Made by a program: the position numbers and the translations under genes. A model generated the notes under the pieces. The model ran no database searches. It was not told where the DNA came from and was given only the letters and a program-made list of their open reading frames with translations. Of a stretch of DNA of 32,000 bases, positions 1,601-17,924 are shown one piece after another. Origin of the DNA: Microcystis aeruginosa NIES-2549 (GTDB taxonomy: Bacteria; Cyanobacteriota; Cyanobacteriia; Cyanobacteriales; Microcystaceae); contig NZ_CP011304.1 in NCBI RefSeq assembly GCF_000981785.2, positions 570,001 to 602,000 of the forward strand. Direction: 5' to 3'. Position 1 is the first letter of the stretch. Every line of letters begins with the position of its first letter.

Positions 1601-1620
1601 CTGTTCATCGTGAACAGTTT
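1601..1620 (+). terminator. Small hairpin plus TTT downstream of cphB (weak intrinsic terminator candidate)
   Basis: ctgttca-tcg-tgaacag forms a perfect 7-bp stem (1601-1617) followed by ttt, 17 nt after the cphB stop. Confidence 0.3.
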
Positions 1621-1694
1621 ACCGATCTCGGAAACCCAGACAATAAACAACGGCTTCTTTGTGCTTCTCAACAGCGAACACCAGCTATATCGTC

Positions 1695-1906
1695 ACTAAC
1701 CCCGCCCTAAAAGGGACGGGGTTTGCCTAAACCAATTTAGGCGACGCAAGTAGAGACTACCGCACCGAGACGCAATCTGGCACAGACCTCCGAATGCTTC
1801 CCTAGTTCGGATTCTCTCTAAGCTTTATTGGTAAAGCGTTGTTAGACAAGACATCTTGATTGTGTTGCGGTAAGGGACTTTAACTTCACTCTTAAGGATT
1901 ATCTCC
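1695..1906 (+). ncRNA. Candidate omega-RNA scaffold of the IsrB element (extent uncertain; the guide is expected just 5' of the scaffold)
   Basis: In IscB/IsrB systems the omega-RNA is encoded directly upstream of the nuclease ORF, sometimes overlapping it. This roughly 210-nt leader has no credible ORF. It contains the hairpins 1700-1721, 1725-1742 (gcctaaa/tttaggc) and 1789-1811 (tccgaa/ttcgga). No covariance-model check was possible. Confidence 0.4.
1700..1721 (+). repeat. 5'-side subterminal hairpin (LE-like)
   Basis: ccccgccct-aaa-aggg(a)cgggg forms a 9-bp stem with one bulged A, followed by gttt. A near-identical stem and tail occur at 3015-3047. Confidence 0.6.
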
Positions 1907-3004
1907 ATGGCAAGAGTTCCTGTTATCTCAAAAGACGGAAAACCGTTGATGCCCACTAAACCCAGTCGGGCCAGGCGGTGGATTAAGGAAGGAAAAGCTA
2001 TCGGTAAATTCAACGACTTAGATATTTTCTATGTCCAGTTAACCGATGAACCTTCCGATAACAAAACCCAACCGATTGCTATTGGTATTGACCAGGGTAA
2101 ATTATTTTCGGGAATTGGCGTTCAATCCTCTCTTTTTACTCTTTGGAAGGCTCACTTAGAACTTCCTTTTAAACGAGTAAAAGAGCGCATGGACAATCGC
2201 TGCTTAATGCGAAGAGGACGTAGAGGAAGACGGATTAACCGCCAACTTCCTTTTAATCTAAGAGCGCATCGACAAAAACGATTCTTAAATAGAAGACAAG
2301 GAAAATTAGCTCCCTCAATCAGAGCTAATCGTCAACTTGAACTTCGAGTCGTTTCCGAACTAACCAAAATCTATCCAATTACCGATATTTATTTTGAGTA
2401 CATCAAAGCCGATGTTGATTTAACTTCTGGTAGAAAAGGGGCTAAGTCTGGAAAAGGTTTCTCGCCGGTTATGGTTGGACAAAAATGGGCTATTGAGCAA
2501 CTGTCTCAGTTTGCAACAGTCCATACTCGCTTTGGTTGGCAAACCTCTAATCTCAGAAAACATTTGCGACTAGAAAAGTCTAAAAATAAAGCAGAACAAT
2601 CACCAGAAAGTCATGCTAACGATGGAATTGCTCTTGCCTGTTTTCAATTTTTAGATTATTTGCCATTTCACAATTCTAATGGTCATGGATATGATTGGAA
2701 GGGTTATGTTAAAGTAACAAACGCTCCCTTTGCTGTCATCAAACGTCCTCCTATTAGTCGTCGTCAACTTCACCTGATGGTTTTTTCTAAAGGTGGTAAA
2801 CGACGTAAATATGGTGGCTCTACCACAAGACATGGGTTCCGTAAAGGAGATTTAGTTTCTTCTCCCAAAGGGATTGGTTATGTAAGTGGAGATACCGAAA
2901 AACAGCTATCTGTAAGCGATACCAGTTGGAAACGATTGGGACAAATAGCTGTTAGCAAGATTCAGTTAATTCGTCGTTCTAACGGTTTAATTGTTTCTCA
3001 CTAA
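1907..3004 (+). CDS. isrB: IsrB-type OMEGA nuclease (IscB homologue lacking HNH; RRXRR/PLMP-domain RuvC protein)
   Basis: Motifs seen: PLMP (VISKDGKPLMPTKPSRARRW); RuvC-I (IAIGIDQGKLFSGIGV); Arg-rich bridge helix (RRGRRGRRINRQ...RFLNRRQGKLAPSIRANRQ); RuvC-II (TDIYFEYIKAD); RuvC-III (ESHANDGIALA). The C-terminus is beta-rich (GFRKGDLV...GIGYVSGD). Only about 65 aa separate RuvC-II from RuvC-III, and there is no CxxC/HNH signature. At 365 aa the size fits IsrB rather than IscB. Confidence 0.75.
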   Translation: MARVPVISKDGKPLMPTKPSRARRWIKEGKAIGKFNDLDIFYVQLTDEPSDNKTQPIAIGIDQGKLFSGIGVQSSLFTLWKAHLELPFKRVKERMDNRCLMRRGRRGRRINRQLPFNLRAHRQKRFLNRRQGKLAPSIRANRQLELRVVSELTKIYPITDIYFEYIKADVDLTSGRKGAKSGKGFSPVMVGQKWAIEQLSQFATVHTRFGWQTSNLRKHLRLEKSKNKAEQSPESHANDGIALACFQFLDYLPFHNSNGHGYDWKGYVKVTNAPFAVIKRPPISRRQLHLMVFSKGGKRRKYGGSTTRHGFRKGDLVSSPKGIGYVSGDTEKQLSVSDTSWKRLGQIAVSKIQLIRRSNGLIVSH

Positions 3005-3014
3005 CTTGTATAAA

Positions 3015-3044
3015 GCCGCCCTCCGCTATCGCTAAAGGGCGGGG
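3015..3044 (+). repeat. 3'-side subterminal hairpin (RE-like)
   Basis: ccgccct (3016-3022) pairs with agggcgg (3036-3042) across a 13-nt loop, followed by ggtttcag. It shares ctaaaggg(a)cggggttt with the 1700-1724 copy and ends 19 nt before the cphA ATG. Confidence 0.6.
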
Positions 3045-3063
3045 TTTCAGACCCATTTTTTCG

Positions 3064-5697
3064 ATGAAAATTCTCAGAACCCAAACCCTGCGCGGTCCCA
3101 ACTACTGGAGTATTCGTCGCGACAAGCTCATTGTTATGCGTCTAGATCTCGAAGATCTCGCAGAGAAGCCATCGAATGAAATCCCAGGCTTTTATGAGGG
3201 ACTAATCGATGTTCTCCCCAGTTTAGTCGAACATTACTGCTCCCCCGGTTATCGCGGCGGTTTCTTTGAACGAGTCCGCACTGGCACTTATATGGGCCAC
3301 ATTATCGAACATATCGCCCTGGAATTGCAGGAATTGGCGGGAACTCCCGTCGGGTTTGGTCGCACTAGAGGCACCTCAACCCCAGGAGTCTATAACGTGG
3401 TGTTTGAATACGTTGAGGAGCAAGCGGGACGTTATGCGGGTCGGGCTGCCGTGCGGTTGTGTCAATCGATTGTCGATACGGGAACCTATCCTCAGGAAGA
3501 ATTGGCCCAAGATTTAGCCGATTTACGCGATTTATGCAATAATGCCTCCCTCGGTCCGAGTACCGAAACCATCGTCAAAGAAGCACAAGCTAGAAATATC
3601 CCCTGGTTACTCCTGAGCGCTCGTGCCATGGTGCAATTGGGCTATGGCGTTCACCAAAAGCGCATTCAAGCCACTTTAAGCAGTTTTTCGGGGATTTTAG
3701 CCGTTGAGTTGGCCTGTGACAAGGAAGGCACGAAAACTATCCTCAAGGATGCCGGCATTCCCGTCCCCCGGGGTACGGTGATTCAATACTTGGATGAGTT
3801 GTCAGCGGCAATCGAGGAAGTGGGAGGATTTCCCATCGTGATTAAACCCCTCGATGGCAACCACGGCCGCGGCATCAGCATCGACATCAAAAATCAGCAG
3901 GAAGCAGAGGAAGCCTATGATCTAGCCAGTGCCGCCTCGAAAACCCGCAGCGTGATCGTAGAAAGGTACTATAAAGGCAGTGATCACCGAATTTTAGTCA
4001 TAAATGGCAAAGTCGCCGCCGTGGCCGAACGGATCCCCGCTCACGTCGTCGGTAATGGGCGCTCAACTATAGAAGAATTAATCGAAATTACTAATCGGGA
4101 TCCCAACCGGGGTGAGGGTCACGCCAACGTTTTAACTAAAATAACTATTGACAAAACCGCCCTTAATGTGCTAGGGAAACAGGGCTATGAATTAACCAGC
4201 ATTTTACCCCAAGGTGCGATTGCCTATCTGCGGGCCACGGCTAATTTAAGCACCGGCGGCATCGCCGTGGATCGTACCGACGAAATTCACCCCGAAAACG
4301 TCTGGATCGCCCAAAGAGTGGCAAAATTAATCGGTTTGGACATTGCCGGGATCGATGTGGTGACAGAGGATATCCGCAAACCCCTGCGAGAAGTGGACGG
4401 GGTAATCGTAGAAGTCAACGCCGCTCCCGGTTTTCGGATGCACGTCGCCCCCAGTCGCGGTTTACCCCGCAATATCGCCGCCCCGGTTATCGATATGTTA
4501 TTCCCCCCCGGGACTCCCAGTCGCGTGCCGATTCTGGCAATTACGGGAACTAACGGCAAAACCACCACTAGCCGCTTAATTTCTCATATTTGCCGACAAA
4601 CGGGGAAAGTAGTCGGATTTACCACGACGGACGGCGTATATATCGATGATTATCTGGTAGAAAAGGGCGATAACACCGGTCCCTACAGTGCCAGTATGAT
4701 TTTGAAGGATCCCACAGTCGAGATTGCCGTATTAGAAACGGCCCGGGGTGGTATCCTGCGATCGGGTTTAGCCTTTAATCAGTGCGATGTGGGAGTGGTG
4801 TTAAATGTGGCCGCTGACCATTTGGGTATCGGTGATATCGACACCATTGAACAAATGGCAAAAGTAAAAAGCGTTGTGGCCGAGGTGGTTAGCGCCGAGG
4901 GTTACGCGGTTTTAAATGCCGATGACCCCTTGACCGCTAGTATGGCCGAAAAAGTCAAGGGAAGAGTGGCTTATTTTTCCATGAGTGCCGATAACCCGAT
5001 TATTCACGACCATATCCGTCGCGGTGGCATGGCCGCCATTTATGAGAATGGCTATCTGTCGATTCTAGAGGGAGAATGGACGCTGAGAATCGAGGAAGCG
5101 GTCAATATTCCCGTGACTATGCAGGGAATGGCCCCTTTTATGATTGCTAACGCCTTGGCCGCCTGTTTAGCCACTTTTGTGCAGGGTATCGATATCGAGT
5201 TAATTCGCCAAGGAGTGCGGACTTTTAAACCTTCCGTGGCCCAGACCCCCGGCAGGATGAACTTGTTTGACTTGGGACACCATCACGCTTTAATCGATTA
5301 TGCCCATAATCCGGCTGGATACGAAGCCGTCGGCGGTTTTGTCGGCAATTGGTCCGGGGAAAAAGTCGGCGTGGTCGGCGGACCTGGCGATCGACGCGAT
5401 GATGATTTAATTTTATTAGGGAAATTATCAGCCCAAATGTTCGATCGAATTATTGTTAAGGAAGATAACGATACTCGCGGTCGCCGCCGGGGGGAAGTGG
5501 CCGATTTAATTCTCCGGGGAATTAGCCAAGAAAATGCCAGTTTGCGGCCGGAAGTTATTCTCGATGAAACGGAGGCTTTAGAGAAGGCTTTAAGCACGGT
5601 TTCTGAGGGTGGTTTAGTGGTAATTTTCCCGGAAAGTGTCACCCAGGCGATCGATTTGATCGAGAAACATCGACCCCTGACCGATAACCGGGGTTAA
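3064..5697 (+). CDS. cphA: Cyanophycin synthetase
   Basis: 877 aa. The N-terminus MKILRTQTLRGPNYWS is followed by an ATP-grasp region (IVIKPLDGNHGRG) and a Mur-ligase-like C-terminal half (ITGTNGKTTT P-loop). It lies next to cphB. Confidence 0.95.
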   Translation: MKILRTQTLRGPNYWSIRRDKLIVMRLDLEDLAEKPSNEIPGFYEGLIDVLPSLVEHYCSPGYRGGFFERVRTGTYMGHIIEHIALELQELAGTPVGFGRTRGTSTPGVYNVVFEYVEEQAGRYAGRAAVRLCQSIVDTGTYPQEELAQDLADLRDLCNNASLGPSTETIVKEAQARNIPWLLLSARAMVQLGYGVHQKRIQATLSSFSGILAVELACDKEGTKTILKDAGIPVPRGTVIQYLDELSAAIEEVGGFPIVIKPLDGNHGRGISIDIKNQQEAEEAYDLASAASKTRSVIVERYYKGSDHRILVINGKVAAVAERIPAHVVGNGRSTIEELIEITNRDPNRGEGHANVLTKITIDKTALNVLGKQGYELTSILPQGAIAYLRATANLSTGGIAVDRTDEIHPENVWIAQRVAKLIGLDIAGIDVVTEDIRKPLREVDGVIVEVNAAPGFRMHVAPSRGLPRNIAAPVIDMLFPPGTPSRVPILAITGTNGKTTTSRLISHICRQTGKVVGFTTTDGVYIDDYLVEKGDNTGPYSASMILKDPTVEIAVLETARGGILRSGLAFNQCDVGVVLNVAADHLGIGDIDTIEQMAKVKSVVAEVVSAEGYAVLNADDPLTASMAEKVKGRVAYFSMSADNPIIHDHIRRGGMAAIYENGYLSILEGEWTLRIEEAVNIPVTMQGMAPFMIANALAACLATFVQGIDIELIRQGVRTFKPSVAQTPGRMNLFDLGHHHALIDYAHNPAGYEAVGGFVGNWSGEKVGVVGGPGDRRDDDLILLGKLSAQMFDRIIVKEDNDTRGRRRGEVADLILRGISQENASLRPEVILDETEALEKALSTVSEGGLVVIFPESVTQAIDLIEKHRPLTDNRG

Positions 5698-6179: not shown

Positions 6180-7109
6180 ATGAATAAAGGAAAAAACGAA
6201 ATGCTGAAAAAATTTCTACGTTGGCTGATTATTGGGGGAACCTTATTTTTTGTTCTCAGTAACCTTAAAAATAACTGGGATAACGTTACCTCAGTTAGAA
6301 TTGAAAATCATGGTTGGTTATTTCTTTTCTTGGCACTTGTAACCACCATTATCGCTCAAATTTGGGCAGGATGGGTGTGGACATGGATACTCAAAAGCTA
6401 TCAACAACCGATTAAAACCTCCGCAGGAATTGGCATCTATATGATTACCAATTTAGGAAAATATCTACCTGGTAATATCGGTCACTTTTATGCTCGCATC
6501 GTGGCAATTAATAAAGCAGGGAGTGATTGGGGAACTGCTAGTTTAAGCGTTTTATTAGAACTTTTACTACTGGTATGTGCAGCCTTAGCCATAGCAGTAA
6601 TTGCTAGTGGTTTAGGTTGGATGAAATCTAGCTCAAGTCTAGGGATACAGATATTAGTTTTAGGATTAATTTTAATCGGCATTCATCCCAAATTTTTAAA
6701 TTATCCTCTCAAAATCCTTAGCCAAAAGAAAAAGATTGCTCAAGAACCAGTTTATCTAACTAAATATCCTCTCGTCCCTCTCCTCGGTGAAACTGGATTT
6801 TTATTGTGGCGCGGCGCGGGTTTTATTTTAGCTGGGATGGTATTAAAAATGATCACCCCCGCTCAGATTTTACCCCTACTAGGAACCTTTAGTTTTGCTT
6901 GGTTATTGGGTTTAGTTGTCCCTGGAGCGCCGGGAGGATTAGGAGTGTTTGAAGCTACAGTAATCGCACTTTTAGACACAGAAAAATTTCCCGCCGCTAA
7001 CGTACTTGTCACCGTTGCTATCTATCGTTTAATTAGCATTCTCTCCGAAGTCATTGCCGCCGTAATCGGGACAAAATTAGTTAAAGATAAAGCCAAGTTT
7101 TTTAGTTAG
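6180..7109 (+). CDS. UPF0104 / lysylphosphatidylglycerol-synthase-TM-like (flippase-like) integral membrane protein
   Basis: 309 aa with multiple predicted TM helices. The motif NLGKYLPGNIGHFYAR and a C-terminal PGAPGGLGVFEA are typical of the UPF0104 family. The start could be 6180 or 6201. Confidence 0.65.
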   Translation: MNKGKNEMLKKFLRWLIIGGTLFFVLSNLKNNWDNVTSVRIENHGWLFLFLALVTTIIAQIWAGWVWTWILKSYQQPIKTSAGIGIYMITNLGKYLPGNIGHFYARIVAINKAGSDWGTASLSVLLELLLLVCAALAIAVIASGLGWMKSSSSLGIQILVLGLILIGIHPKFLNYPLKILSQKKKIAQEPVYLTKYPLVPLLGETGFLLWRGAGFILAGMVLKMITPAQILPLLGTFSFAWLLGLVVPGAPGGLGVFEATVIALLDTEKFPAANVLVTVAIYRLISILSEVIAAVIGTKLVKDKAKFFS

Positions 7110-7125
7110 CTTAGGGATATTAGTC

Positions 7126-7153
7126 GGGTGTGTTAGCCCAATGTAACGCACCC
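7126..7153 (+). repeat. GGGTGTGTTA...TAACGCACCC hairpin element downstream of the 6180..7109 CDS
   Basis: A 10-bp stem (one G.U on the + transcript) lies 17 nt after the stop. A related copy occurs at 31002-31028. Confidence 0.55.
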
Positions 7154-7294
7154 AGAAGAAAAGTTTTGATCATTGTTAACTGAAGATAATTTTCTCAACT
7201 CCTAACATCTATCTCCTCACTCCTAAATTCTGATGTAACATAGGATCAATAATCAGCAAAAATATGGATACTCCCACCTAGAGAGGCCGAAAAA

Positions 7295-8104
7295 ATGACG
7301 ATTGCCAAAAGCGACGAAACTGCCACCTCTCCGGCACTGATAGAAGAAGATTTCGAGGACTTCTGGGAACCCGCCCCACCCCCCACAGACTTAATTTTTG
7401 ATGATGGTGAACCCTTGGAAAGCAACCGACACCGCATTGCCATGAATGTGCTGATTCGCTCCCTACAGCAAGGTTACGGCGAGCGAGACGACTTCTACAC
7501 CAGTGGCAATATGTTTATTTATTTCAGCCGCGAACAGGCGAAAAATCGCGATTTTCGCGGGCCCGATTTCTTCGCCGTCCTCAATGTTGATGGCAAGAGA
7601 GAGCGACAGGGTTGGGTAATTTGGGAAGAAGAGGGACGTTATCCCGACGTTATCGTGGAATTAACATCTTCTAGTACCGCTAAGACCGATAAAGTGCGAA
7701 AAAAAGCCATTTATGAGGGAACCTTCCGCACACCAGATTATTTCATCTACGATCCTTTTGATGCCAATTCTTTACAAGGATGGCATTTAGGGGCCGACCA
7801 ACGCTACCATTCTTTAGAACGAAACGAGCGCGGCTGGTTATGGTGCGAAACTTTAGGCTATTGGTTGGGAACTTGGGAGGGGACTATTGACCGAGAAACG
7901 GCAATTTGGGTGAGATTTTATGACCCAGAAGGCAAATTAATCCCCTTGCCAGAAGAAGCGGCCCAGGAACAAGCGGCTGCGGCACAGGAGCAGGCAGCCG
8001 CAGCACAGGAGCAATTAAATGCTACTCAGCAAGCTCTGGAAGCGGAAAGACAGCGTTCTCAACAGCTGGCGGCTCGTTTGCGAGAAATGGGGATAGAGCT
8101 ATAG
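7295..8104 (+). CDS. Uma2-family (DUF820) putative endonuclease with a C-terminal Q/A/E coiled-coil tail
   Basis: GEPLESNRHRIAMNVLIRSL, NMFIYF, PDFFAVLNV and PDVIVELTSSST...K..Y match the Uma2/PD-(D/E)xK layout abundant in cyanobacteria. The tail is EEAAQEQAAAAQEQAAAAQEQ. Confidence 0.8.
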   Translation: MTIAKSDETATSPALIEEDFEDFWEPAPPPTDLIFDDGEPLESNRHRIAMNVLIRSLQQGYGERDDFYTSGNMFIYFSREQAKNRDFRGPDFFAVLNVDGKRERQGWVIWEEEGRYPDVIVELTSSSTAKTDKVRKKAIYEGTFRTPDYFIYDPFDANSLQGWHLGADQRYHSLERNERGWLWCETLGYWLGTWEGTIDRETAIWVRFYDPEGKLIPLPEEAAQEQAAAAQEQAAAAQEQLNATQQALEAERQRSQQLAARLREMGIEL

Positions 8105-8301
8105 TATAGCTGTATTTGTTTAGGTGAGGAGGTAAACTGCTCCTGTTCCTCCTCGTTCAAAGTCGGTTAATTTCCCCTTTCACGGTTGAGGAAGCCTGCA
8201 ATCCCAGTGTATTTGAAATCTAGCGCGACACCTGTTTGCTGCTGTGATTACCTTTCGACCAGTCGGTAATTATTGATCAGAGTTTTCTTGGATTCTTCCT
8301 T

Positions 8302-8363
8302 AAACAGTAAACAGTGAACTGAAAACTCAAATCTGATAACTGATAACTGATAATTGATAACTG
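8302..8363. repeat. Heptamer (STRR-like) array (CTGATAA)n with a 17-mer anchor
   Basis: aaacagtaaacagtgaactgaaaactcaaat is followed by ctgataa x3, ttgataa and ctg. The anchor CAGTGAACTGAAAACTC lies at 8312-8328. Confidence 0.9.
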
Positions 8364-8399
8364 TCTCAACTAGGAAATTTATTTGGCACGACTACTTAT

Positions 8400-9773
8400 A
8401 TGTCTAATCTATCTTTTGGCGCACAACCTCCTCTAGAATTTATACCCCCTGACCTTAATCCCTTGCTTTTAAAGGGATGTCAAATCTTTTTACCTCTCTG
8501 GTTACAAACTAAAACCAATTTAAGAGAAATTTCCGCCGCCAATCTAGAAACTTTAATCACATTTTATCAAAAAAGTCAAGAGAAAAAAGTCCGTTTACTG
8601 CTGGCTTTTCGTCATCCTAGTATTAACGATCCCTACTGTATGGCCTATCTTTTGTGGAAATTAGTACCCAAAAAAGCCCAAGAGTTAGGAATAAAATTAC
8701 CGGCACCGACTCACGCTCATTTTATGTACGATCGAGGGATTCCTTTATGGGCTGGAGAAAGGGTAGGATGGTTATATTCTAAGTTGGGTGGCACACCAAT
8801 TCAACGGGGAAAAGCCGATTTAATCGGATTGCGTTCGGCTCGTCGTTTATTATTAGAAGGAGATTATCCTCTAGCTGCCGCTCCAGAAGGGGCAACTAAC
8901 GGACATAATGAGCTTGTCAGTGCTATTGAACCGGGTATTTCTCAATTAGCTTTTTGGGGTGTGGATGATGTCAGAAAAGCTAAACAACAGCAGGAAGTAA
9001 TTATTTTACCCATTGGTATTCAGTATTTTTATCTAACTCCAGTCTGGCAAGAAATCGAGCAAATTTTAACTAATTTAGAAACCGATAGCGGTTTACAACC
9101 AATCCCGAATTCATCCCTAGAAGAAAAGGTTTTATACGAGCGTCTTTTTCGGTTAGGAGAAAGATTATTATCCTTAATGGAGGATTTTTATCGAGATTTC
9201 TACTATCAATCTTTGCCTGTAGTACCTGCCAATGGCGATGATCCAAACGAAACCCTAGCCAAACGTTTAGCCAATTTATTAGATGTGGCCCTACAAACCG
9301 CAGAAAAGTATTTTAATATTTCTCCTAATGGTAATGTGATCGATCGCTGTCGTCGTTTGGAACAAGCAGGATGGGAACGCATTTATCGGGAAGAATTAAA
9401 ACCCACTCATTCTATTTCTCCCCTTGAATTAGGATTAGCTGATCGCCTGGCCGATGAAGCTAATTTAAAAATGTGGCACATGAGAATTGTGGAAAGTTTT
9501 GTGTCAGTAACTGGTTATTATGTCAAGGAAAAACCCACTGTAGAAAGATTTGCCGAGACAATTTTATTACTCTGGGATTTAGTGACAAGAATTAAAGGAG
9601 GTAATCCCTTTTTCCGTCCCCAAATTGGTCAACAAAAAGCGATAATAACTATCGGTAAACCTATTTCCGTATCCGATCGCTATGGCGATTATAAAAGTGA
9701 TCGACGCTCGGCCGTAGCACAATTAACCCAAGATTTACAAACCAGTTTAGAAAGTTTAATTATTCATCAGTAG
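8400..9773 (+). CDS. Phospholipid/glycerol acyltransferase family protein (PlsC-like)
   Basis: The HX4D motif (FRHPSINDP) and the PEG motif (AAPEGATNG) are present. 457 aa. Confidence 0.7.
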   Translation: MSNLSFGAQPPLEFIPPDLNPLLLKGCQIFLPLWLQTKTNLREISAANLETLITFYQKSQEKKVRLLLAFRHPSINDPYCMAYLLWKLVPKKAQELGIKLPAPTHAHFMYDRGIPLWAGERVGWLYSKLGGTPIQRGKADLIGLRSARRLLLEGDYPLAAAPEGATNGHNELVSAIEPGISQLAFWGVDDVRKAKQQQEVIILPIGIQYFYLTPVWQEIEQILTNLETDSGLQPIPNSSLEEKVLYERLFRLGERLLSLMEDFYRDFYYQSLPVVPANGDDPNETLAKRLANLLDVALQTAEKYFNISPNGNVIDRCRRLEQAGWERIYREELKPTHSISPLELGLADRLADEANLKMWHMRIVESFVSVTGYYVKEKPTVERFAETILLLWDLVTRIKGGNPFFRPQIGQQKAIITIGKPISVSDRYGDYKSDRRSAVAQLTQDLQTSLESLIIHQ

Positions 9774-9810
9774 ATAATTAGGGTTTGCTGAAAAAGTTTG
9801 TTGGTGGAGT

Positions 9811-9866
9811 CAGTTATCAGTTATCAGTTATCAGTTATCAGTTATCAGTTATCAGTTATCAGTTCA
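9811..9866. repeat. Heptamer array (CAGTTAT) x7 plus one degenerate unit; reverse complement of the 8333-8363 array
   Basis: There are seven perfect cagttat units at 9811-9859, then cagttca. Confidence 0.95.
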
Positions 9867-9888
9867 CTGAGAAAACACCCCACACCCC

Positions 9889-9980
9889 TAGGGTTAATTC
9901 ATAGTAGGGTTAATTCATGGTAGGGTTAATTCATGGTAGGGTTGATTCATGGTAGGGTTGATTCATGAATCAACCCTACC
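9889..9980. repeat. 16-nt tandem repeat (GGGTTRATTCATGGTA, about 4.75 copies) ending in a 30-nt palindrome
   Basis: Units start at 9891, 9907, 9923, 9939 and 9955. The terminal sequence ggtagggttgattc-at-gaatcaaccctacc (9951-9980) is a perfect inverted repeat. The array is flanked on both sides by cacacccc. Confidence 0.9.
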
Positions 9981-10159
9981 CACACCCCACTTCCCGACGC
10001 AAAACTTTTTCACCTAGCTCTAGTATAGGAGATAGTACGGGAATCTGGAAAAACTCAGTACCGAAAACCCTACCCCGGTCAGAGAATCTTTTATCTATCC
10101 TAAAAGTGTAGAGATAAACCAACATCTCTAGCGTTAAGAAAACTTCGGAGGTGACTTAT

Positions 10160-10621
10160 ATGGCACTTATACGTTGGGAACCTTTCAGAGAAGTAGAAGG
10201 CCTACAAAAAGAAATGAATCGCTTGTTTGACCGTCTTGTGCCGACTCATTTGGGTGATGGTGAAAAAATGGGGTTATCCTTCATCCCAGCGGCGGAAATG
10301 ACCGAAACGCCAGAGGCAGTTCAGCTTAAACTGGAAATACCTGGTATGGAAGCCAAAGACCTCAACGTGGAAGTAACAGCCGATAGTCTGACCATTAATG
10401 GTGAAAGAAAATCGGAAATTAAAACCGAAGAAGAAGGATTTACCCGCACTGAGTTCCGTTATGGTAAATTCCATCGAGTTATTCCTCTACCGGTTCAGGT
10501 TGATAATACTAACGTGACCGCTGAATACAAAGATGGTATTCTCAATCTCACCCTCCCGAAAGCGGAAGAAGAGAAAAATAAAGTGGTGAAAGTGTCCATC
10601 AGTCCTGCCATTGCTCAATGA
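10160..10621 (+). CDS. hspA: Small heat-shock protein, Hsp20/alpha-crystallin family
   Basis: MALIRWEPFREVEGLQKEMNRLFD is followed by the alpha-crystallin core (AEMTETPEAVQLKLEIPGM...GILNLTLPK). ATG at 10160 follows ggagg (10147-10151), so the GTG at 10151 in the track is probably too early. Confidence 0.9.
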   Translation: MALIRWEPFREVEGLQKEMNRLFDRLVPTHLGDGEKMGLSFIPAAEMTETPEAVQLKLEIPGMEAKDLNVEVTADSLTINGERKSEIKTEEEGFTRTEFRYGKFHRVIPLPVQVDNTNVTAEYKDGILNLTLPKAEEEKNKVVKVSISPAIAQ

Positions 10622-10678
10622 TGTAGCACTCATTGTCTGGTCTTGAGCGAAAGAGTTGACCTAGTCTGATTAAACCAA

Positions 10679-10706
10679 AGCGGGAGTATTAAATCATACT
10701 TCCGCT
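10679..10706. terminator. Hairpin between convergent hspA and the DUF790 gene (possible bidirectional terminator)
   Basis: agcgggagta-(8 nt)-tacttccgct forms a 10-bp stem with one G.U, followed by ttt. Confidence 0.4.
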
Positions 10707-10723
10707 TTTAGCTTCCTAACCTT

Positions 10724-11938
10724 TTAATTTAAAACTTCTAACACTGCTTGGGGTGATAATTTATCTTTAAACCAGATAACCTGAGCGGGTAGATTTTGGA
10801 ATTTAACTCCAGCTTTTTCGAGATTTAACCGTTCCGATACGGCTAAAATTAGATTATTTGCTTGGGCCGATTTAACCTGTAAAAATTTCTTTTGTAGGTA
10901 TTCTGGTCGCCAATAACCAACAATTTCTAGGAGAAAAACGCGACCATCGGGATGCACTAAACGGAAATCGGGAATCATCACTCCTCCGGGTAAAGGCACT
11001 AAATCCACTTCCCTTTCTAACTGCCATTCAGTTTTTAACTGTAACCAACGTTTAGCGAAAGATTCCTCTAACATACTATCGTAGGGTTTACCCGGGGAAT
11101 AGTGGGACACCAGACCACAGTTATCCTCTAAATTGAACTGTTGTTTTTTAATAGTTCCTGTGTAGGAATCTTTGTACTGTAATTGTGCCTTCAGATTCCA
11201 GTGAGTAACATGGAGTAAGGCAGGAATTAATTTAGCGATTTCAATGCCATAACGACTATTAGCTTTAAATAAACTGGTGGGACCATCGATAGTAATAGTA
11301 AATCCCGTGTCGGCATCCCCTTCGATATAAGTCATTAAACGAAATAGTTTTAGATAGCGAAAGAGATATTTATATTCCCCCGGATCGTTGCGGTGGACGT
11401 TGATAATTAAATAACTGGCCCGATAAAAAATCCCTTGAATTTGGGAGAGGTTAAAACGATGAATTAGGTTTTCGGGGGTGGGAGCATCAAATTGAGTGAG
11501 AATTTTATTCTCTGCTAAATCAGCATAGAGTCCTTTTTCTAGAGCCACTGGAAAAATTTCTTGATTTAATTCTTGGCTGAGTTGCTGGGCAATTTTTCCC
11601 AGAATTAGCGATCGATTTTGGGGAATAGGAACAAAGTTGGCCGCTTGTTCAAAAACTCTTTTTCTTAATTCCTGCGGTTCTAAGGGACTAATAATCTCAA
11701 AGGTGGCAAAATGATTGGTTAATAGGTGAGCAAATCCCCGTTTAATTTTATAATCGGGACTGTCTCCCTCCAAGATTAGGAGTTTTTGGCTTAATTCTCC
11801 CTTAGTTGCACCGATACTTTCCTGAAAACAGGTGATTTGTTCTTTGGCGATCGCCAGATAATCGCCAGCGAGGGGTAAGCGTTTAGGAATAATTGTCTCG
11901 CCATTTTGACGGGAAATCAATAAATCGGTCGGTAACAT
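10724..11938 (-). CDS. DUF790-family (Bax1-like) putative endonuclease
   Basis: The N-terminus is MLPTDLLISRQNGETIIP. The C-terminus VMIPDFRLVHPDGRVFLLEIVGYWRPEYLQKK matches, from memory, the conserved DUF790 nuclease core (PDF...EIVGxWxPEYL). Confidence 0.65.
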   Translation of the reverse strand: MLPTDLLISRQNGETIIPKRLPLAGDYLAIAKEQITCFQESIGATKGELSQKLLILEGDSPDYKIKRGFAHLLTNHFATFEIISPLEPQELRKRVFEQAANFVPIPQNRSLILGKIAQQLSQELNQEIFPVALEKGLYADLAENKILTQFDAPTPENLIHRFNLSQIQGIFYRASYLIINVHRNDPGEYKYLFRYLKLFRLMTYIEGDADTGFTITIDGPTSLFKANSRYGIEIAKLIPALLHVTHWNLKAQLQYKDSYTGTIKKQQFNLEDNCGLVSHYSPGKPYDSMLEESFAKRWLQLKTEWQLEREVDLVPLPGGVMIPDFRLVHPDGRVFLLEIVGYWRPEYLQKKFLQVKSAQANNLILAVSERLNLEKAGVKFQNLPAQVIWFKDKLSPQAVLEVLN

Positions 11939-12015
11939 GGCAAGCTAGAGAGGAATAATCAGATGGGGAGAGGTGGGACGACAAGGAAAGTCGAAACCCC
12001 AAAAATCCCCCGCTT

Positions 12016-12360
12016 CTAACTATTTTGGTCGATATAACGCTCTAAATCTTCGATCACACGGGTTAATTCTGCTTCTGTGGTTAAGCGTAGGCGATCATCA
12101 CGAACCGTTAGCAAAACTTTAGCCGAAAAAGGATTCGGATAAATATTGGGATTACAAAACACTTCCAGAAACACATCACCAGTGTGCTGATATTCCAGCG
12201 GTTTTTGGGGTTGGGGTTTACCCCCACTAGAGGCATTACTGGCGATCGCTTTTAGGCGATCGAGTAAAATGTTAATTTCCCTTTGCAAATCCAGAGCAGC
12301 ACTGGGACTGAAACGAAAAGTAACGGAACCTTGCAAGAGATTAAGAGTTAAAGGAATCAT
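12016..12360 (-). CDS. Hypothetical protein (114 aa), same strand and 77 nt upstream of the DUF790 gene
   Basis: A clean ATG ORF. The only overlapping ORF is the 62-aa opposite-strand 12269..12457. I recognise no motif. Confidence 0.45.
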   Translation of the reverse strand: MIPLTLNLLQGSVTFRFSPSAALDLQREINILLDRLKAIASNASSGGKPQPQKPLEYQHTGDVFLEVFCNPNIYPNPFSAKVLLTVRDDRLRLTTEAELTRVIEDLERYIDQNS

Positions 12361-12444
12361 GGAAAAAATCAGGTTAGGAGAAGGCCTGAAGTCAATTATA
12401 TTAATTTGTGGAAATTTGGGGAAATTGGGTTTTGGGGGATTGTT

Positions 12445-12479
12445 CAGTCATCAGTAATCAGTAAACAGTAATCAGTGAG
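12445..12479. repeat. Heptamer array (CAGTNAN x5)
   Basis: The units are cagtcat cagtaat cagtaaa cagtaat cagtgag. Confidence 0.85.
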
Positions 12480-12589
12480 GTTCTTCGTTACTTGGTCTGG
12501 TTCGATCGGGTGATCGCTAAATGTCTTTCTCTATAATAGTTTCATCCCTTATAACCCCGTCCATTCCATAACAGGAACCGAAAGGCCAT

Positions 12590-12665
12590 CAGTGAACTGA
12601 AAACTCACCACTGATAACTGATAACTGATAACTGATAACTGATAACTGATCACTGATCACTGAAG
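12590..12665. repeat. 17-mer anchor plus (CTGATAA)x5 and (CTGATCA)x2 array, abutting the stop codon of the 64-aa ORF
   Basis: CAGTGAACTGAAAACTC lies at 12590-12606 and the heptamers at 12611-12659. The array is in inverted orientation relative to 12445-12479. Confidence 0.95.
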
Positions 12666-12860
12666 TTACCGACGCGGAACGAGATTAATCCGGCCTTCGT
12701 CCATTTCATCCATGAGTAACTCTAGGGCCTCGTAATCCACATCGGAAACGTAGCCAAGACGAGCGAGGAGTTCATTAATTCCATTCTCGATTTCTGGCGT
12801 GATTTGACGATAATATAGGGCTTTTTCCACTAATTGGCGGATAGTCGGCTGGGTATCCAC
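12666..12860 (-). CDS. Hypothetical small protein (64 aa, GTG start)
   Basis: The ORF is the only support. The acidic C-terminal half (DVDYEALELLMDEMDEGR) looks protein-like. I recognise no family. Confidence 0.4.
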   Translation of the reverse strand: MDTQPTIRQLVEKALYYRQITPEIENGINELLARLGYVSDVDYEALELLMDEMDEGRINLVPRR

Positions 12861-13219
12861 AATTTTCTTACTCTAGTTCGATAAATCTAGTTTCCGTATC
12901 CTGCTTTACTTTATTTCAGCAAAAATACCGGTAGAATACTGGGTCATCGTCAGTCATTCGGGATTAGAGCTTAAACCTAGCGACTTTACCCTGATGTTCC
13001 CCCTAGTAAGCCTTGATAACTGTTCCTCTCTAGCGCCTGGATTATAAGGTTAACCTAAAAGTGGTTCCTACCTACAGGGGTCAAGATTAAAAAAAGATTA
13101 ATCTTTTCAGGAGAGAGAAAATTGATCAAGACCGGGGTTGCAAAATCAGAAAGTTAGGACATAATAGCGGTATCTGATTTCCAGTTAAAAGGTTCATTTA
13201 TGAATTTAAAAGCCAAGCC

Positions 13220-13570
13220 ATGAAAAGTCGCGTAAAAGTCCCAGAAATAGCTCTATTTGAGCCAAGTGGCTATATTACCGCCGCTAACGTCCTAGAATTT
13301 CAAGAGCAGCTCACCAATCTGGTTAACCAGAGTAGCTCTGTCACTTTTCTCGTGGATATGAGTAGGGTGGAATTCCTCGACAGCGCCGGATTAATGGCTT
13401 TAGTTACCGCCTTTCGTCTGGCTCAAAGTCAAGAAAAATCCCTCAATATTTGTTCTATTCCACCTTCAGTCAAGATTATCTTTGAATTAACCCAACTGGA
13501 CCGGGTTCTCTCGATTTTCCCTAGCCGTGCGGACTTTGATGCTGTCATCACCCTCCCCCAAGCGGCGTAA
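13220..13570 (+). CDS. STAS-domain anti-sigma-factor antagonist (SpoIIAA-like)
   Basis: 116 aa, with the FLDSAGLMALV motif (phosphorylatable Ser context) and an IFELTQLDRVL helix. Confidence 0.85.
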   Translation: MKSRVKVPEIALFEPSGYITAANVLEFQEQLTNLVNQSSSVTFLVDMSRVEFLDSAGLMALVTAFRLAQSQEKSLNICSIPPSVKIIFELTQLDRVLSIFPSRADFDAVITLPQAA

Positions 13571-13695
13571 GCCGACAAAATAGCGTTTCTCGCCGTAATT
13601 TCTCGGCTACAATCTGAATTCTACCCGTAAATCACCTCTTGACCGGGCAGATTGCCATTTACATTACCGACTCCTCAGGACAACAATTTTTCTCA

Positions 13696-13729
13696 AGGAG
13701 AGCCATTATACTGTTGAGATGGCTCTCCT
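13696..13729 (+). terminator. Strong hairpin (11-bp perfect stem) followed by ccttttggg
   Basis: aggagagccat-(12 nt)-atggctctcct lies 126 nt after the STAS stop and 134 nt before the next start codon. Confidence 0.5.
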
Positions 13730-13862
13730 CCTTTTGGGATATTATTTCGGGGGGCAAACTACCATACACTTGTTGGGAGCAGCTCACAAAAGACTGTCTA
13801 TTAAGAAATTCCATGACTTTAGTAATGACAGGGGGGAAGGGGGCCAAGATGGTAGATAGGTA

Positions 13863-14792
13863 ATGAGTAGTAATTTCCTAGAATCCATGACAGTCAACAA
13901 TCTCCAGTATGCTTATTTTCCCGGTTGTGTCGCTCAAGGTGCCTGTCGGGAACTATATTTATCCACGGCAGCCCTGACGGAAGCTTTGGGGATTAATTTA
14001 GTCGAACTCAAAAAAGCTGCCTGTTGTGGTTCGGGAACCTATAAGGAAGATTCGCAACTCTTGGAAGATGCCGTCAATGCGCGCAATATTGCCCTAGCGG
14101 AAGCCCTCAATTTACCCCTATTGACTCACTGTAGCACCTGTCAAGGAGTGATCGGTCATGTGGATGAGCGCTTGAAGGAAGCAAAGCATAATAATCCCAA
14201 TTATGTTGAGGAAGTTAATAATTATTTACAGAAAGAACATTGTTCCCCCTACCAAGGTACGACGACGGTTAAGCACCTACTCTGGGCAATTGTCGGCGAT
14301 TATGGCTTAGATAATCTGGCGGCCAAGGTAGTCCGTCCCTTATCAGGCTTAAATTGTGCCGGTTTTTATGGTTGTTATCTCTTGCGGGCCCAGGATACTC
14401 TCCCCTACGATAATCCTTTTCAGCCGGAATCTCTAGAAAATGTCTTTCGGGCCGTGGGGGCGAATCCGATTTATTATCAAGGACGCACCCAATGCTGTGG
14501 TTGGCCCCTGTCCAGTTATGCCACCACCCAATCGTTCCAAATGGCAGGAAAACACATTTTAGAGGCCATGGCAGCGGGGGCCGATTGTTTAGTCACCCCT
14601 TGTCCTTTATGCCATCTTAATCTTGATTCCCGACAACCGGAAGTGGCAAAAGTGATCGGTCGAAGTTTAGGTTTACCTGTGTTACATTTTTCCCAATTAG
14701 TCGCTTTAGCGCTCGGAGTCAGTCCTGATCGTTTAGGATTAGATCGACACATAGTTTCGACCAAATCCCTCTTAAAGAAATTGGGGTTTTAG
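13863..14792 (+). CDS. HdrB-like protein with two CCG cysteine-rich domains (heterodisulfide reductase B / type-E succinate:quinone oxidoreductase SdhE-like)
   Basis: Two CX(n)CCGX(n)CXXC modules are present: [10 protein letters not shown]...AACCGSG...HCSTCQG and FYGCYLL...TQCCGWP...TPCPLCHLN. Confidence 0.8.
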
Positions 14793-14814
14793 AACTCAAT
14801 CAGGAGTGTTAGCA

Positions 14815-15147
14815 ATGGATTGGTTAAAAAGAATTTTTGGCTTAGATAAACCGGCCAATGCCTCTAGTGCGATCGCAGGTAAAGCTGCTGCTGCGGGTAT
14901 TCCCCCCGAAAGAGTCGGATTAGACGGAAAATACGACGAAAGCGGCCTAGCTAAACGAGTAGTTTTAGCTTTTGACGAGACACCGGATTTAGCTGATGAA
15001 GACAAATTGTGGGTCGCTCAAACTGGCAGTAAAGTTGTACTAAAAGGCAAGGTTGCCAATCAGGCGACTTTAAATAAAATGGTGGCCATTGCCAGTAAAG
15101 TCCCTGGGGCAACCAGCGTCGATACCAGTCAAGTAACTATTGGGTGA
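14815..15147 (+). CDS. BON-domain protein
   Basis: The C-terminus GSKVVLKGKVANQATLNKMVAIASKVPGATSVDTSQVTI fits the BON pattern. ATG at 14815 follows aggag (14802-14806). The track start at 14806 is a GTG inside the RBS. Confidence 0.6.
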   Translation: MDWLKRIFGLDKPANASSAIAGKAAAAGIPPERVGLDGKYDESGLAKRVVLAFDETPDLADEDKLWVAQTGSKVVLKGKVANQATLNKMVAIASKVPGATSVDTSQVTIG

Positions 15148-15173
15148 AGTCGAACGGCTATATAGCAGTAATA

Positions 15174-15199
15174 GTAGGTTGATTCATGAATCAACCTAC
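15174..15199. repeat. 26-nt palindrome related to the terminal palindrome of the 16-mer array
   Basis: gtaggttgattc-at-gaatcaacctac shares the core ttgattcatgaatcaa with 9951-9980. It lies 27 nt after the BON gene stop. Confidence 0.8.
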
Positions 15200-15361
15200 A
15201 AAGCACGACGTTTTGAAAAATTTTCAGATATTTATTCCGAGAAATCGACTAAAAACGTTGCCAGATAAGGATTTGAGAGAATGACATAAGAGAGAATGAA
15301 ACAACCCTAGGGGGCAGGGGGGATCAAACCTAAAATCCATTTTTAATTTAATTATAACCAG

Positions 15362-16549
15362 CTAATTAGGATAAACTCGCCCTTTCCAACCTCCCCCTTG
15401 ACCGCGCCAATAACGGAGGGCAGAATCCACAGTCATTAAACTATAAAAGAGGGCAATTAGGGGTAAAGTTAAAGCCCGCAGAGGGGATAATTTATATAGT
15501 CTTAAAGTCGGGCTATAGGAGAGGGCGATTAGTAATAAGGTGACGGCGCTAATTATAATAATTGATCTTTCTTTTAAGACCAATCCCCAGATTAAGCCCA
15601 AGGGGGCAGCTAAATAGGTTAAAAACATCCCGAAAATTGTCCCTATTAACCAAAGTATTGAGTAATTTAGTTGTGTAAAGGCGGTGCGTGCTACCATATT
15701 CCAAATGCTGGCTAAATCGGGATAGGGACGGAGACTATAGGTGGTTTCTGTTAATCCTAGCCAGATAGATTTATCGGTATTTTCGGGGTGATTTTGTAGA
15801 TATTTTTTAACGGCAATTGCCAAGGAACAATCATCAATCAAAGCTTGTTTAAGAATCTCAATACCGCCAATTTTTTCTAGTGTATCTCGGCGAATTAAAA
15901 TGCAACCCCCGGCGGCGGCTGCTATCGGGGAGTTAGGGTTATTAACTAGGGCAAAAGGATAGAGTTTCTCGAAGAAAAAAACAAAGGCAGGAATAAGAAA
16001 TTTTTCCCAAAAACTGTCACAGCGTAGCAACACCATCAGGGAAACTAAAGCTTGTTTTTCTTGTACTGCTTTAGTAACTAATTGGGTTAAATTATCTGGT
16101 GCGTGGGCAATATCGGCATCGGTGAAGAGAAAATAATCGGGTGCAAATTTCTCGGTAGCCTCTGTTATTCCCTGTTTCATTGCCCATAATTTACCCGTCC
16201 ATCCTATCTCTAAAGGTTGTCCATAAATAATAGTTATCTGGTCAGATTTATGAGATTGATCAGCAATTTTTTGAGCAACTTTTCCCGTACCATCACTGCT
16301 TTGATCGTCAATTAAAATAATGGAAAATTCTCCTTGATAATCTTGGTTAAAGAGGGAAGCTAAACTGATGGGTAAAACGTCGGCTTCGTTTCGTGCGGGG
16401 ATAATTGCCGAGACTTTTGGATAATTTGTTAAAGGAGAAGTGACAGGATTAATTTTTTGGTTAGATAGCCAAAATTGTCCCCTAGCTAAGATTAAATATA
16501 ACCAAATTATCAACGATAGAGAGGTAACTAATAATAAGAAAAATGTCAT
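15362..16549 (-). CDS. Family-2 glycosyltransferase, membrane-anchored
   Basis: VSAIIPARNE, ILIDDQSSDGT and FTDADIAH (DxD-type) are present, with N- and C-terminal TM helices. The architecture resembles HpnB-like GT2 enzymes, but I cannot confirm that. Confidence 0.8.
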   Translation of the reverse strand: MTFFLLLVTSLSLIIWLYLILARGQFWLSNQKINPVTSPLTNYPKVSAIIPARNEADVLPISLASLFNQDYQGEFSIILIDDQSSDGTGKVAQKIADQSHKSDQITIIYGQPLEIGWTGKLWAMKQGITEATEKFAPDYFLFTDADIAHAPDNLTQLVTKAVQEKQALVSLMVLLRCDSFWEKFLIPAFVFFFEKLYPFALVNNPNSPIAAAAGGCILIRRDTLEKIGGIEILKQALIDDCSLAIAVKKYLQNHPENTDKSIWLGLTETTYSLRPYPDLASIWNMVARTAFTQLNYSILWLIGTIFGMFLTYLAAPLGLIWGLVLKERSIIIISAVTLLLIALSYSPTLRLYKLSPLRALTLPLIALFYSLMTVDSALRYWRGQGGGWKGRVYPN

Positions 16550-16700
16550 AAGATAGTCAGCTTTCGATGAGGAAATAGGGAAAAGGTCAAAAAGAGGATC
16601 AAATTTAGATGCACAAAAGCTTAACCAGTTTGGGGTTTAATAGAGGGCAATTTAGGGTAAAATAAAAGCAAGTTAGCAAGATTAACCGAGGGAGTAAATC

Positions 16701-17924
16701 ATGGATTATGATGTAGTAATTATTGGGGGGGGACCGGCGGGAGGTCACTGTGGCAGATTATTAAGTGAAAAAGGTTATCGTGTTCTTTTAGTGGAACAAC
16801 ATTCTAGTTGGCAAGATAATAACTTTTCTAGTGCCGCTTCTCCCCTAGAAATTTTAGAACAATTCAATCTCCCCGAAACCGTAGTGGCTAGGTTTTGGAA
16901 AAATATCGAAATTATCTCCACTAGCATACATCATTTTTGGTCATCAGCGCAACCTTTAGGGGTAGTTTTTGATTTTGCCAAATTGCGAGAGTTTTTAGCG
17001 GCGGAAGTGCTGCGTTGGGGGGGAGAAGTTCGTTTAGGTTGTCGTTATCTGAAATATCAACAGACGGAGGATCAGCTAACTGTTTTCTTGAAATCAAAAG
17101 GCGAGAAAATCGAGACAGTTACTACTCGTTTATTGGTTGATGCTACTGGATACGCTAGAGCAGTTATGTATAAATATAGACGAGAAAAACCTGATTTTTT
17201 AAAGGGTTTAGGAATTGAATATTTAATTGCTGTGCCAGAAGGAGATTATCAAAAATATCAAGATAATTTAGTATTTTTTCTCGGTCATAAATGGAGTCCT
17301 AAAGGTTATGGCTGGATTTTTCCTATGGATAATCAGCAATTAAAAATAGGAGCTGCTTGGTTAGAGGGAGAACATCCTTATATTGATGAAGTTAAGCCTT
17401 TAAAAAGTTATATTACACAAATTATTCAAACCTATATGAATCTCTCTAAATATGATATAATCGACATTCATGGTTCTATTTTAGAATATTCGCTCAATCT
17501 GCAAGATATTTATTATCAAGAACCGAATATTATAGCGATTGGTGATGCGGTTTCTACGGTTAACTTTTTAGGAGGGGAAGGTATTCGCCATGCTATGAAA
17601 GGAGCCGAAATTGCTTGTCAATACATGGAGGAATATTTACAGGGAAAATCGAGTAGTTTTGTCGCTTATCAACAGAGGATGCAAGAATATTTTCAACCAA
17701 AATGGAATTTATCCGATCGCCTCAGTCGCAAAGTTTATTTAAAATATAGTGATGCGCGTATTGATCAAGGATTATCCTATCTCAAGCACCTTTCCACTCA
17801 GGATATAATCGACATTTTATTTTACTACAAATTTGAAAAATACACAAAAGGTTTAGGAGGATTTCTCCTGGGGAAATTACGTCAATGGTGGCGCAGAATT
17901 TTCCCTAGTCAAAAACCTGAGTAA
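16701..17924 (+). CDS. FAD-dependent oxidoreductase, geranylgeranyl-reductase-like family
   Basis: The N-terminal dinucleotide fold is YDVVIIGGGPAGG and a later motif is AIGDAVSTVNFLGGEGI. Confidence 0.8.
   Translation: MDYDVVIIGGGPAGGHCGRLLSEKGYRVLLVEQHSSWQDNNFSSAASPLEILEQFNLPETVVARFWKNIEIISTSIHHFWSSAQPLGVVFDFAKLREFLAAEVLRWGGEVRLGCRYLKYQQTEDQLTVFLKSKGEKIETVTTRLLVDATGYARAVMYKYRREKPDFLKGLGIEYLIAVPEGDYQKYQDNLVFFLGHKWSPKGYGWIFPMDNQQLKIGAAWLEGEHPYIDEVKPLKSYITQIIQTYMNLSKYDIIDIHGSILEYSLNLQDIYYQEPNIIAIGDAVSTVNFLGGEGIRHAMKGAEIACQYMEEYLQGKSSSFVAYQQRMQEYFQPKWNLSDRLSRKVYLKYSDARIDQGLSYLKHLSTQDIIDILFYYKFEKYTKGLGGFLLGKLRQWWRRIFPSQKPE

Follow-up and report, generated by a model that had tools for sequence, protein, structure and literature searches.

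The 32,000-nucleotide stretch of the Microcystis aeruginosa NIES-2549 genome analysed here (contig NZ_CP011304.1, positions 570,001 to 602,000; hereafter the window) contains the cyanophycinase gene cphB (601-1584; Peptidase_S51 match) and the cyanophycin synthetase gene cphA (3064-5697; assigned from its Pfam families), separated by a compact mobile element that carries isrB, predicted to encode an RNA-guided nickase. Coordinates are those of the window; the features of the element and its flanks lie on the + strand, cphB shares the orientation of isrB, and the closest proteins and loci are all from Microcystis. From 5' to 3', the locus consists of a host cphB-cphA intergenic spacer outside the element (1585-1671), a putative guide (1676-1691), a conserved RNA scaffold (1692-1883) with a short variable tail (1884-1906), isrB (1907-3004), a conserved terminal segment (3005-3063) and a host-derived ATGA (3064-3067), the ATG of which is the start codon of cphA. 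The region immediately 5' of isrB had been proposed, in an original prediction made from the letters of the stretch, to encode an omega-RNA comprising guide and scaffold. The proposal is borne out by a full-length match to the HEARO model below its curated threshold, by a covarying fold complete with both pseudoknots, by a position exactly at the transposon end, and by a putative guide that is directly followed by ATGA in the element-free site. We hold with high confidence that 1692-1883 (perhaps up to 1906) is the scaffold of an IsrB omega-RNA, preceded by a guide from about 1672 or 1676 to 1691, in a 1372-bp non-autonomous element of the IS200/IS605 type.

The boundaries of the element emerge from comparison with 79 related loci fetched from cyanobacterial genomes, with protein identities of 47-98%. 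BLAST similarity of the leader begins every time at 1689-1693, and that of the other end stops at 3067-3069. Junction views show a sharp break between 1691 and 1692: all copies have GTCACTAACCCC... from this point onward, and the flanks upstream are unrelated and specific to each copy. At the other end, all copies remain alike through ...TTTTCGATGA, which ends at window 3067, and differ beyond it. A further comparison is with a Microcystis contig (L080) that encodes an identical 877-aa CphA and lacks the element. Its spacer reads ...GCGAACACCAGCTATATC directly continued by ATGAAAATTCTC..., the joint being GAACACCAGCTATATC followed by ATGA, so that adding the 1372 bp of 1692-3063 to the empty site gives the occupied one, with a single ATGA kept and no target-site duplication. 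Copies of the element in phage genomes cover 1692-3068, consistent with these limits. Positions 1618-1691 are found in the cphB-cphA spacer of the empty site with one substitution; the spacer 1585-1671, likewise present there with one substitution, is kept in no other copy of the element. The span of 1618-1906 originally suggested for the omega-RNA is therefore sound on its right side and too wide on its left, where 1618-1671 is host spacer and homology starts at 1692.

ATGA lies directly 3' of every element copy. The conserved GATGA was considered as element sequence; for its ATGA this was rejected, since the empty site already has one ATGA, and the preceding G is the last base of the element. 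On the opposite strand the motif reads TCAT and abuts the end distal to the RNA, and the same layout is described for IscB, with TTCAT as the target-adjacent motif (TAM) of GstIscB (Meers et al.). By the IS200/IS605 convention, the end carrying the omega-RNA is the right end (Meers et al.). The earlier statement that the guide derives from sequence just outside the element's left end is thus correct in placing it outside the element and needs the end renamed. The left end, 59 bp at 3005-3063, is kept in all copies up to ATGA and contains a subterminal hairpin (3016-3022 with 3036-3042) plus a small GC hairpin and T-run (3042-3062). The hairpins near both ends (1700-1721 and 3016-3042) have common arms, CCGCCCT...AGGG(A)CGG, as read by eye. 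We classify the element as non-autonomous and IS200/IS605-type (peel-and-paste), set between the leader of cphA and its ATG.

Directly 5' of the homology start, the host-derived last bases of the cphA 5' leader would form the guide, GAACACCAGCUAUAUC at 1676-1691. Its length of 16-20 nt is taken from published IsrB and IscB guides (PMC9581776), and a 20-nt guide would begin at 1672. In the empty site the guide match runs directly into ATGA, which fits the published IsrB TAM of NTGA or NTG (PMC9581776) and suggests that guide and ATGA together make up a target; in the occupied site the guide is followed by GTCA. The guide had originally been placed at 1675-1699 and the scaffold from about 1700. 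Its siting outside the element was right and its extent was not, for it took in the first 8 scaffold nucleotides, where the 5' arm of stem S1 lies; the guide ends at 1691 and the scaffold starts at 1692, at the homology boundary. No other target of the 16-nt guide occurs in the window, where the guide is unique. A repeat search, a search with the first 19 scaffold nucleotides allowing 3 mismatches, and the covariance model R1 described below detected no additional copy and no orphan omega-RNA elsewhere in the window.

The predicted 365-aa product of isrB has the features of an IsrB protein. Pfam RRXRR matches residues 4-181 (E=1.7e-51), and residues 2-361 align with PDB 8dmb, the DtIsrB of Desulfovirgula thermocuniculi (E=6.9e-40); IscB structures match in the N-terminal third only. 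A PLMP motif (residues 13-16), a bridge helix RRGRRGRR (102-109) and the split RuvC residues D62, E164, H236 and D239 are all present, and neither Pfam nor the 8dmb alignment places an HNH domain in the protein. The motifs together with the full-length match to 8dmb mark the gene as an intact isrB, predicted to encode a RuvC-only nickase. Upstream of it, the + strand holds no open reading frame (ORF) of at least 40 aa in 1585-1906, in agreement with the earlier view that the leader has no credible coding content. The scaffold ends 23 nt upstream of the isrB ATG on the same strand, and the arrangement is alike in 66 related loci.

A permissive Rfam scan of the window returned a single meaningful match, HEARO (RF02033) at 1692-1884 on the + strand, with 40.6 bits and E=1.8e-6 and covering all 211 model positions. 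HEARO was later identified as the IscB omega-RNA, and the window RNA is related to it yet stands outside its curated threshold. A clade-specific covariance model (R1, seeded with 24 sequences of the alignment A1 introduced below and searched over 512 kb) has its sole window match at 1692-1883, with 211.4 bits. It gives one match directly 5' of each full-length isrB in the fetched loci, including 43 non-seed sequences and Crocosphaera watsonii, and no match on the empty site L080. Two of the routes of verification that had been proposed, a scan with covariance models and an alignment of related leaders, both deliver: the latter yields compensatory changes as well as a homology stop between 1691 and 1692 that marks the guide/scaffold junction.

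The scaffold opens with stem S1 (1692-1697 with 1752-1757), enclosing the stem-loops SL1 and SL2; it covaries at alignment pairs 13-78 (GC to UA) and 18-73 (UA to CG). SL1 (1700-1704 with 1717-1721, with an inner GCCC/GGG extension) has 4 of its 5 pairs covarying and, from its likeness to the hairpin at 3016-3042, is probably also a TnpA-binding hairpin in its DNA form. SL2 (1724-1730 with 1737-1743) covaries in 5 of 7 pairs. The nexus stem S2 (1760-1763 with 1867-1870; 3 of 4 pairs covarying in A1 and 4 of 4 in the larger alignment A3) encloses S3, S4, SL4, SL5 and SL6. Within it, the long stem S3 (1769-1780 with 1855-1866) covaries in 9 of 11 pairs in A1 and 10 of 11 in A3, and S4 (1784-1786 with 1817-1819) leads to SL4 (1789-1795 with 1805-1811). 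SL5 (1822-1826 with 1833-1837), whose five stem pairs all covary, and SL6 (1839-1842 with 1846-1849) follow. Two pseudoknots tie these helices together. The adaptor pseudoknot joins the SL2 loop (1732-1736, CCAAU) to the SL5 loop (1827-1831, AUUGG), and the nexus pseudoknot pairs the SL4 loop (1799-1803, UCCCU) with the strand AGGGA at 1873-1877. In the nexus pseudoknot, 99.2% of alignment cells are paired, and the pairs 126-205 (CG to UA or GC) and 128-203 (UA to CG) covary. SL3 is absent from the window RNA. Three stems previously picked out by eye are all real and supported by covariation; they correspond to SL1 (1700-1721), to SL2, whose limits of 1725-1742 widen to 1724-1743, and to SL4 (1789-1811). 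The tail at 1884-1906, compared across 41 loci, holds a short, variable, SL7-like terminal hairpin. Minimum-free-energy and centroid folds both place this hairpin at 1878-1883 with 1892-1897, and its register is ambiguous (1878-1897), two registers fitting the tail comparison. Its 3' arm overlaps the Shine-Dalgarno sequence AAGGA (1894-1898), with the conserved AUUAUCUCC next, just before the ATG.

As a single sequence, 1618-1906 folds modestly better than its shuffled versions (z = -2.27). Alignment A1 comprises 25 leaders, for which S1 and a pseudoknot seen by eye were added to the RNAalifold consensus before pairs were counted. The RNAalifold consensus itself shows compensatory changes in 35 of 46 pairs. 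For the full structure of 57 pairs, 98.1% of cells are standard-paired and 39 pairs show compensatory changes; sliding the partners by 1-3 columns lowers pairing to 28-49%, and none of 500 shuffles attains the observed values. All ten helices are 96-100% paired across the 25 sequences. The five pairs of the adaptor pseudoknot are 100% paired in the same set, with compensatory changes in two and 7-54% pairing upon sliding by 1-3 columns. Alignment A3, of 66 distinct sequences and 52 pairs, gives 97.8% pairing and compensatory changes in 44 pairs, figures that are biased towards the structure because the alignment was fitted to the covariance model; its controls are at 29-43% when slid by 1-3 columns, and again 0 of 500 shuffles attain the observed values. 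The closing pair of S3 is a G.U kept in 63 of the 66 sequences, and conserved G.U pairs in 63, 60 and 49 of the 66 would turn into A.C mismatches if the complementary strand were the one folding. It is therefore the + strand, transcribed towards isrB, that is under constraint.

Several observations indicate recent movement of the element. The cphA site is occupied or empty between genomes with identical CphA, and copies 94-98% identical are found at many Microcystis sites. Seven phage records have copies 91.5-91.8% identical over exactly window 1692-3068, the phages concerned being Ma-LMM01, MaMV-DC, MaMV-DH01, MaMV-CH01 and MaMV-CH02. The Ma-LMM01 copy (locus L081, 150341-154116) contains a full omega-RNA (R1, 193.6 bits), and its RRXRR gene, gp171, belongs to the same element family. 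In a published experiment (PMC11237433), a Microcystis gene for an IsrB-like protein, orf2067, jumped into phage Mic1 at ATGA and took along 207 bp of upstream and 59 bp of downstream sequence. It belongs to the same element family as the window copy, with which it shares the 59-bp downstream end and the insertion at ATGA, and its insertion site differs. In the passages of that report covered by the search and in the gp171 record, the protein alone is annotated, and omega-RNA, guide and element ends are not named.

Several sister copies show features of their own. The annotated coding sequence of gp171 opens within the omega-RNA, at L081 1364, which is 52 nt before the conserved ATG; this start is probably mis-called. 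In the same phage, three additional incomplete copies of the beginning of the element (28-39 nt; GTCACTAACCCC... with a degenerate SL1) are arrayed head to tail just upstream of the full omega-RNA (L081 1096-1200). Repeated excision and repair may have left them as scars, and no similar partial tandem copies were seen in the window or the other loci. One Microcystis copy (L005 2680-3003), in which a 100-nt insertion interrupts the omega-RNA and ATA replaces the ATG of isrB, is probably decaying. Enlarged leaders occur at two further loci (L046, 252 nt; L068, 236 nt).

From the observed boundaries, empty site, flanking ATGA, covarying structure and intact protein, a working mechanism can be proposed in which transcription, guide processing, complex formation, nicking and homing are modelled on published work on IsrB, IscB and TnpB. 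With the guide situated outside the element, 5' of its boundary, transcription would have to begin in host DNA and would proceed across guide, scaffold and isrB; the spacer 1585-1671 is its presumed source, through either a cphA promoter or read-through from cphB. The shared orientation of cphB and the element fits the orientation bias reported for IscB elements (Meers et al.). The scaffold would fold into S1 with SL1 and SL2, then S2, S3, S4 with SL4, SL5 and SL6, the adaptor and nexus pseudoknots locking the fold, and IsrB would bind the folded RNA, whose guide would be trimmed to about 16-20 nt. The complex would then recognise DNA matching the guide and followed by NTGA. The only natural site of this kind would be the element-free joint, GAACACCAGCTATATC continued by ATGA, which could arise by excision with TnpA acting in trans or exist on an unoccupied copy of the chromosome. 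IsrB would nick the non-target strand there, and recombinational repair from an occupied copy would restore the element, with retention or homing as the outcome. Self-targeting at the occupied site would not take place: GTCA, not NTGA, follows the guide there, and the element would therefore spare itself.

A number of points weigh against this interpretation. IsrB only nicks DNA, and element restoration through recombination triggered by nicks has been demonstrated for TnpB and IscB and not for IsrB. A sigma-70 consensus scan of the + strand of 1585-1691, upstream of the guide, gave no recognisable promoter. The whole-window Rfam scan had no match at gathering thresholds, the HEARO score of 40.6 bits being under the curated gathering score of 83. 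S1 contains an A.A mismatch (1695/1754) in the Microcystis copies and in the loci L030 and L044, in place of the A-U pair seen in the rest of the alignment. Both ends of the RNA, like the length of its guide, are putative. Finally, neither a Y1 transposase nor TnpB is found among ten of the window's large ORFs that were scanned (6180-22727, none of them beyond 23 kb) and that are housekeeping genes. With no TnpA found there, the element is considered non-autonomous, and its current mobility therefore relies on a transposase elsewhere in the genome.

The missing tnpA also lends itself to a different explanation, namely that the RNA is real and the copy a resident relic, transcribed and folded and no longer supporting retention or homing, for instance because no compatible TnpA is active or because nicking by IsrB does not drive repair. 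Some sister copies are decaying, as L005 illustrates with its insertion and lost start codon, and homing driven by IsrB has not been shown experimentally in published work. The window copy itself looks different: ORF and catalytic motifs are all intact, the scaffold score of 211 bits with R1 is among the best of the family, the polymorphism of the site between genomes with identical CphA indicates recent movement, near-identical copies (94-98% at the amino acid level) occupy many sites and are also found in phages, and a Microcystis copy was seen transposing into phage Mic1 in the laboratory (PMC11237433). We regard the relic explanation as unlikely.

Far less probable still is that the leader is merely a cis-acting 5' untranslated region controlling isrB translation or stability and involves no guide RNA. 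The location of the Shine-Dalgarno sequence within the 3' arm of the last small hairpin does imply that the fold could influence translation. A function of this kind would explain none of three observations, however: the fold, which spans 190 nt and combines ten helices with two pseudoknots, agrees helix for helix with the architecture of IsrB omega-RNAs solved and tested by experiment (PMC9581776); the fold starts exactly at the transposon end; and the flank plus ATGA rebuilds a target bearing the TAM. The notion that the conservation reflects DNA hairpins recognised by TnpA, which are known at IS200/IS605 ends and which SL1 (1700-1721) recalls in its resemblance to the other-end hairpin (3016-3042), is just as improbable, considering that SL1 alone has a counterpart at the other end, that nine other helices and the pseudoknots over 190 nt exceed a TnpA site, and that the conserved G.U pairs tie the structure to the sense strand of isrB.

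The position of ATGA at the cphA start codon turned out to be part of a wider pattern. Counting a site when an ORF of at least 100 aa starts at the flanking ATG and runs outward from the element, start-codon insertions account for 25 of 33 unique evaluable sites in close relatives and 10 of 22 in more divergent copies, hence 35 of 55 (64%) in all, the host genes being on the same strand. For comparison, the share is about 15% when every ATGA of these loci is counted, and start codons make up about 10.5% once a crude ORF mask has restricted the ATGA sites to start codons and intergenic positions. The N-termini of the downstream ORFs look genuine, examples being CphA, a ThiD-like protein and response regulators, and in phage Ma-LMM01 the RefSeq-annotated gp170 begins exactly at the flanking ATG. 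We suggest, tentatively and with somewhat less than even confidence, that this cyanobacterial IsrB family docks at start codons, placing itself exactly between a host 5' leader and the ATG, as a selected or mechanistic property of its insertion sites. Docking of this kind would supply the element with a host promoter, a short 5' leader to serve as guide and a neutral position, and would leave the host ORF expressed downstream of isrB. Meers et al. argued that IscB guides need transcription initiated by the host, and this need, combined with survivorship of insertions that avoid gene disruption, may explain part of the pattern. Docking at start codons would, if true, represent a choice of insertion site not described before for OMEGA elements, and the pattern, if confirmed genome-wide, would refine the rule of host-initiated transcription for IscB and IsrB guides.

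For the host, the insertion parts cphA from its native leader and may thereby affect cyanophycin synthesis. The native -1 to -20 region of cphA is replaced by the inserted element, the last bases of which, adjoining the cphA ATG, form a terminator-like GC hairpin with T-run (GGGTTTCAGACCC ATTTTTTCG, 3042-3062). The motif T(A/G)TAAAGCC, conserved at 3009-3017, could belong to an outward promoter or to the TnpA site. On the other side, a perfect 7-bp hairpin (CTGTTCA TCG TGAACAG, 1600-1616) stands shortly past the cphB stop, with no more than TTT behind it. As a terminator it is a weak candidate and leaves room for transcription to continue from cphB into the guide; its loop differs by one base from that of the empty-site contig. 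Elsewhere in the window, 7-nt tandem-repeat arrays (CAGTTAT or ACTGATA and variants, on both strands) occupy several intergenic regions (8298-8363, 9786-9877, 12576-12676, 26269-26346 and 27131-27252) and resemble the short tandemly repeated repeats of cyanobacteria. A 16-nt unit, TAGGGTTAATTCATGG, stands in five tandem copies at 9889-9968, and ORFs for a putative restriction endonuclease of the Uma2 family (7295-8104) and a DUF790 protein (10724-11938) lie amid housekeeping genes.

Lastly, the window system can be placed among those already characterised. IsrB omega-RNAs are built from stems S1-S4 and SL1-SL8; an adaptor pseudoknot links SL2 to SL5, and a nexus pseudoknot links the SL4 loop to a strand located between S2 and SL7 (Hirano et al. 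2022, PMC9581776). Group B2, which comprises the IsrB of Crocosphaera watsonii (CwIsrB) and of Dolichospermum (DsIsrB), is without SL3, and its orthologues nick DNA with an NTG(A) TAM (PMC9581776). The window RNA maps one to one onto this group: S1-S4, SL1, SL2, SL4, SL5, SL6 and both pseudoknots are shared, SL3 is missing, and the flanking ATGA fits the NTG(A) TAM, although species and copy are different. The protein, like CwIsrB and DsIsrB, is a cyanobacterial IsrB of about 365-380 aa, with about 70% identity to the proteins of the C. watsonii loci. Two C. watsonii leaders (L013 and L014) give full-length R1 matches of 153 and 137 bits, although the primary sequences have diverged so far that the leader BLAST alignment is merely partial. 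The likeness to CwIsrB is drawn from the published architecture and from the C. watsonii loci. With DtIsrB (PDB 8DMB, group B1) the window system has in common the protein fold family, the pseudoknot topology, a guide 5' of the scaffold and, putatively, a TAM of NTGA/TTGA. The DtIsrB RNA, from a thermophilic Firmicute, is about 280-300 nt long with SL3 and SL8, whereas the window scaffold has about 192-215 nt and lacks SL3.

Like HEARO and the IscB omega-RNA, the window RNA precedes its nuclease gene and has a 5' stem in which two hairpins are embedded, a nexus and a long stem S3. The model stem region at about 129-175 is largely replaced in it, and the partner protein, having no HNH domain, is IsrB, not IscB. 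The TnpB reRNA/omega-RNA of IS605 and ISDra2 offers the analogy of a flank-derived guide, a TAM corresponding to the target motif of the other end, and a target identical with the excision joint. The TnpB RNA lies 3' of or within its gene, has a 3' guide and uses an internal promoter, in contrast to the present RNA, which is 5' of the gene and has its guide at the 5' end (Meers et al.). The precise annotation of an RNA-guided nickase in a bloom-forming cyanobacterium, with guide, scaffold, pseudoknots, element ends and ATGA, is of importance in its own right, and the compact mesophilic scaffold (about 192-215 nt) and its 365-aa nickase make a candidate reagent for genome editing, although tests of close relatives already exist. 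Systems of this kind are well known, close cyanobacterial relatives having been examined biochemically, and what is new here is the exact annotation of this copy, its miss by the curated Rfam thresholds and its position in the cyanophycin locus.

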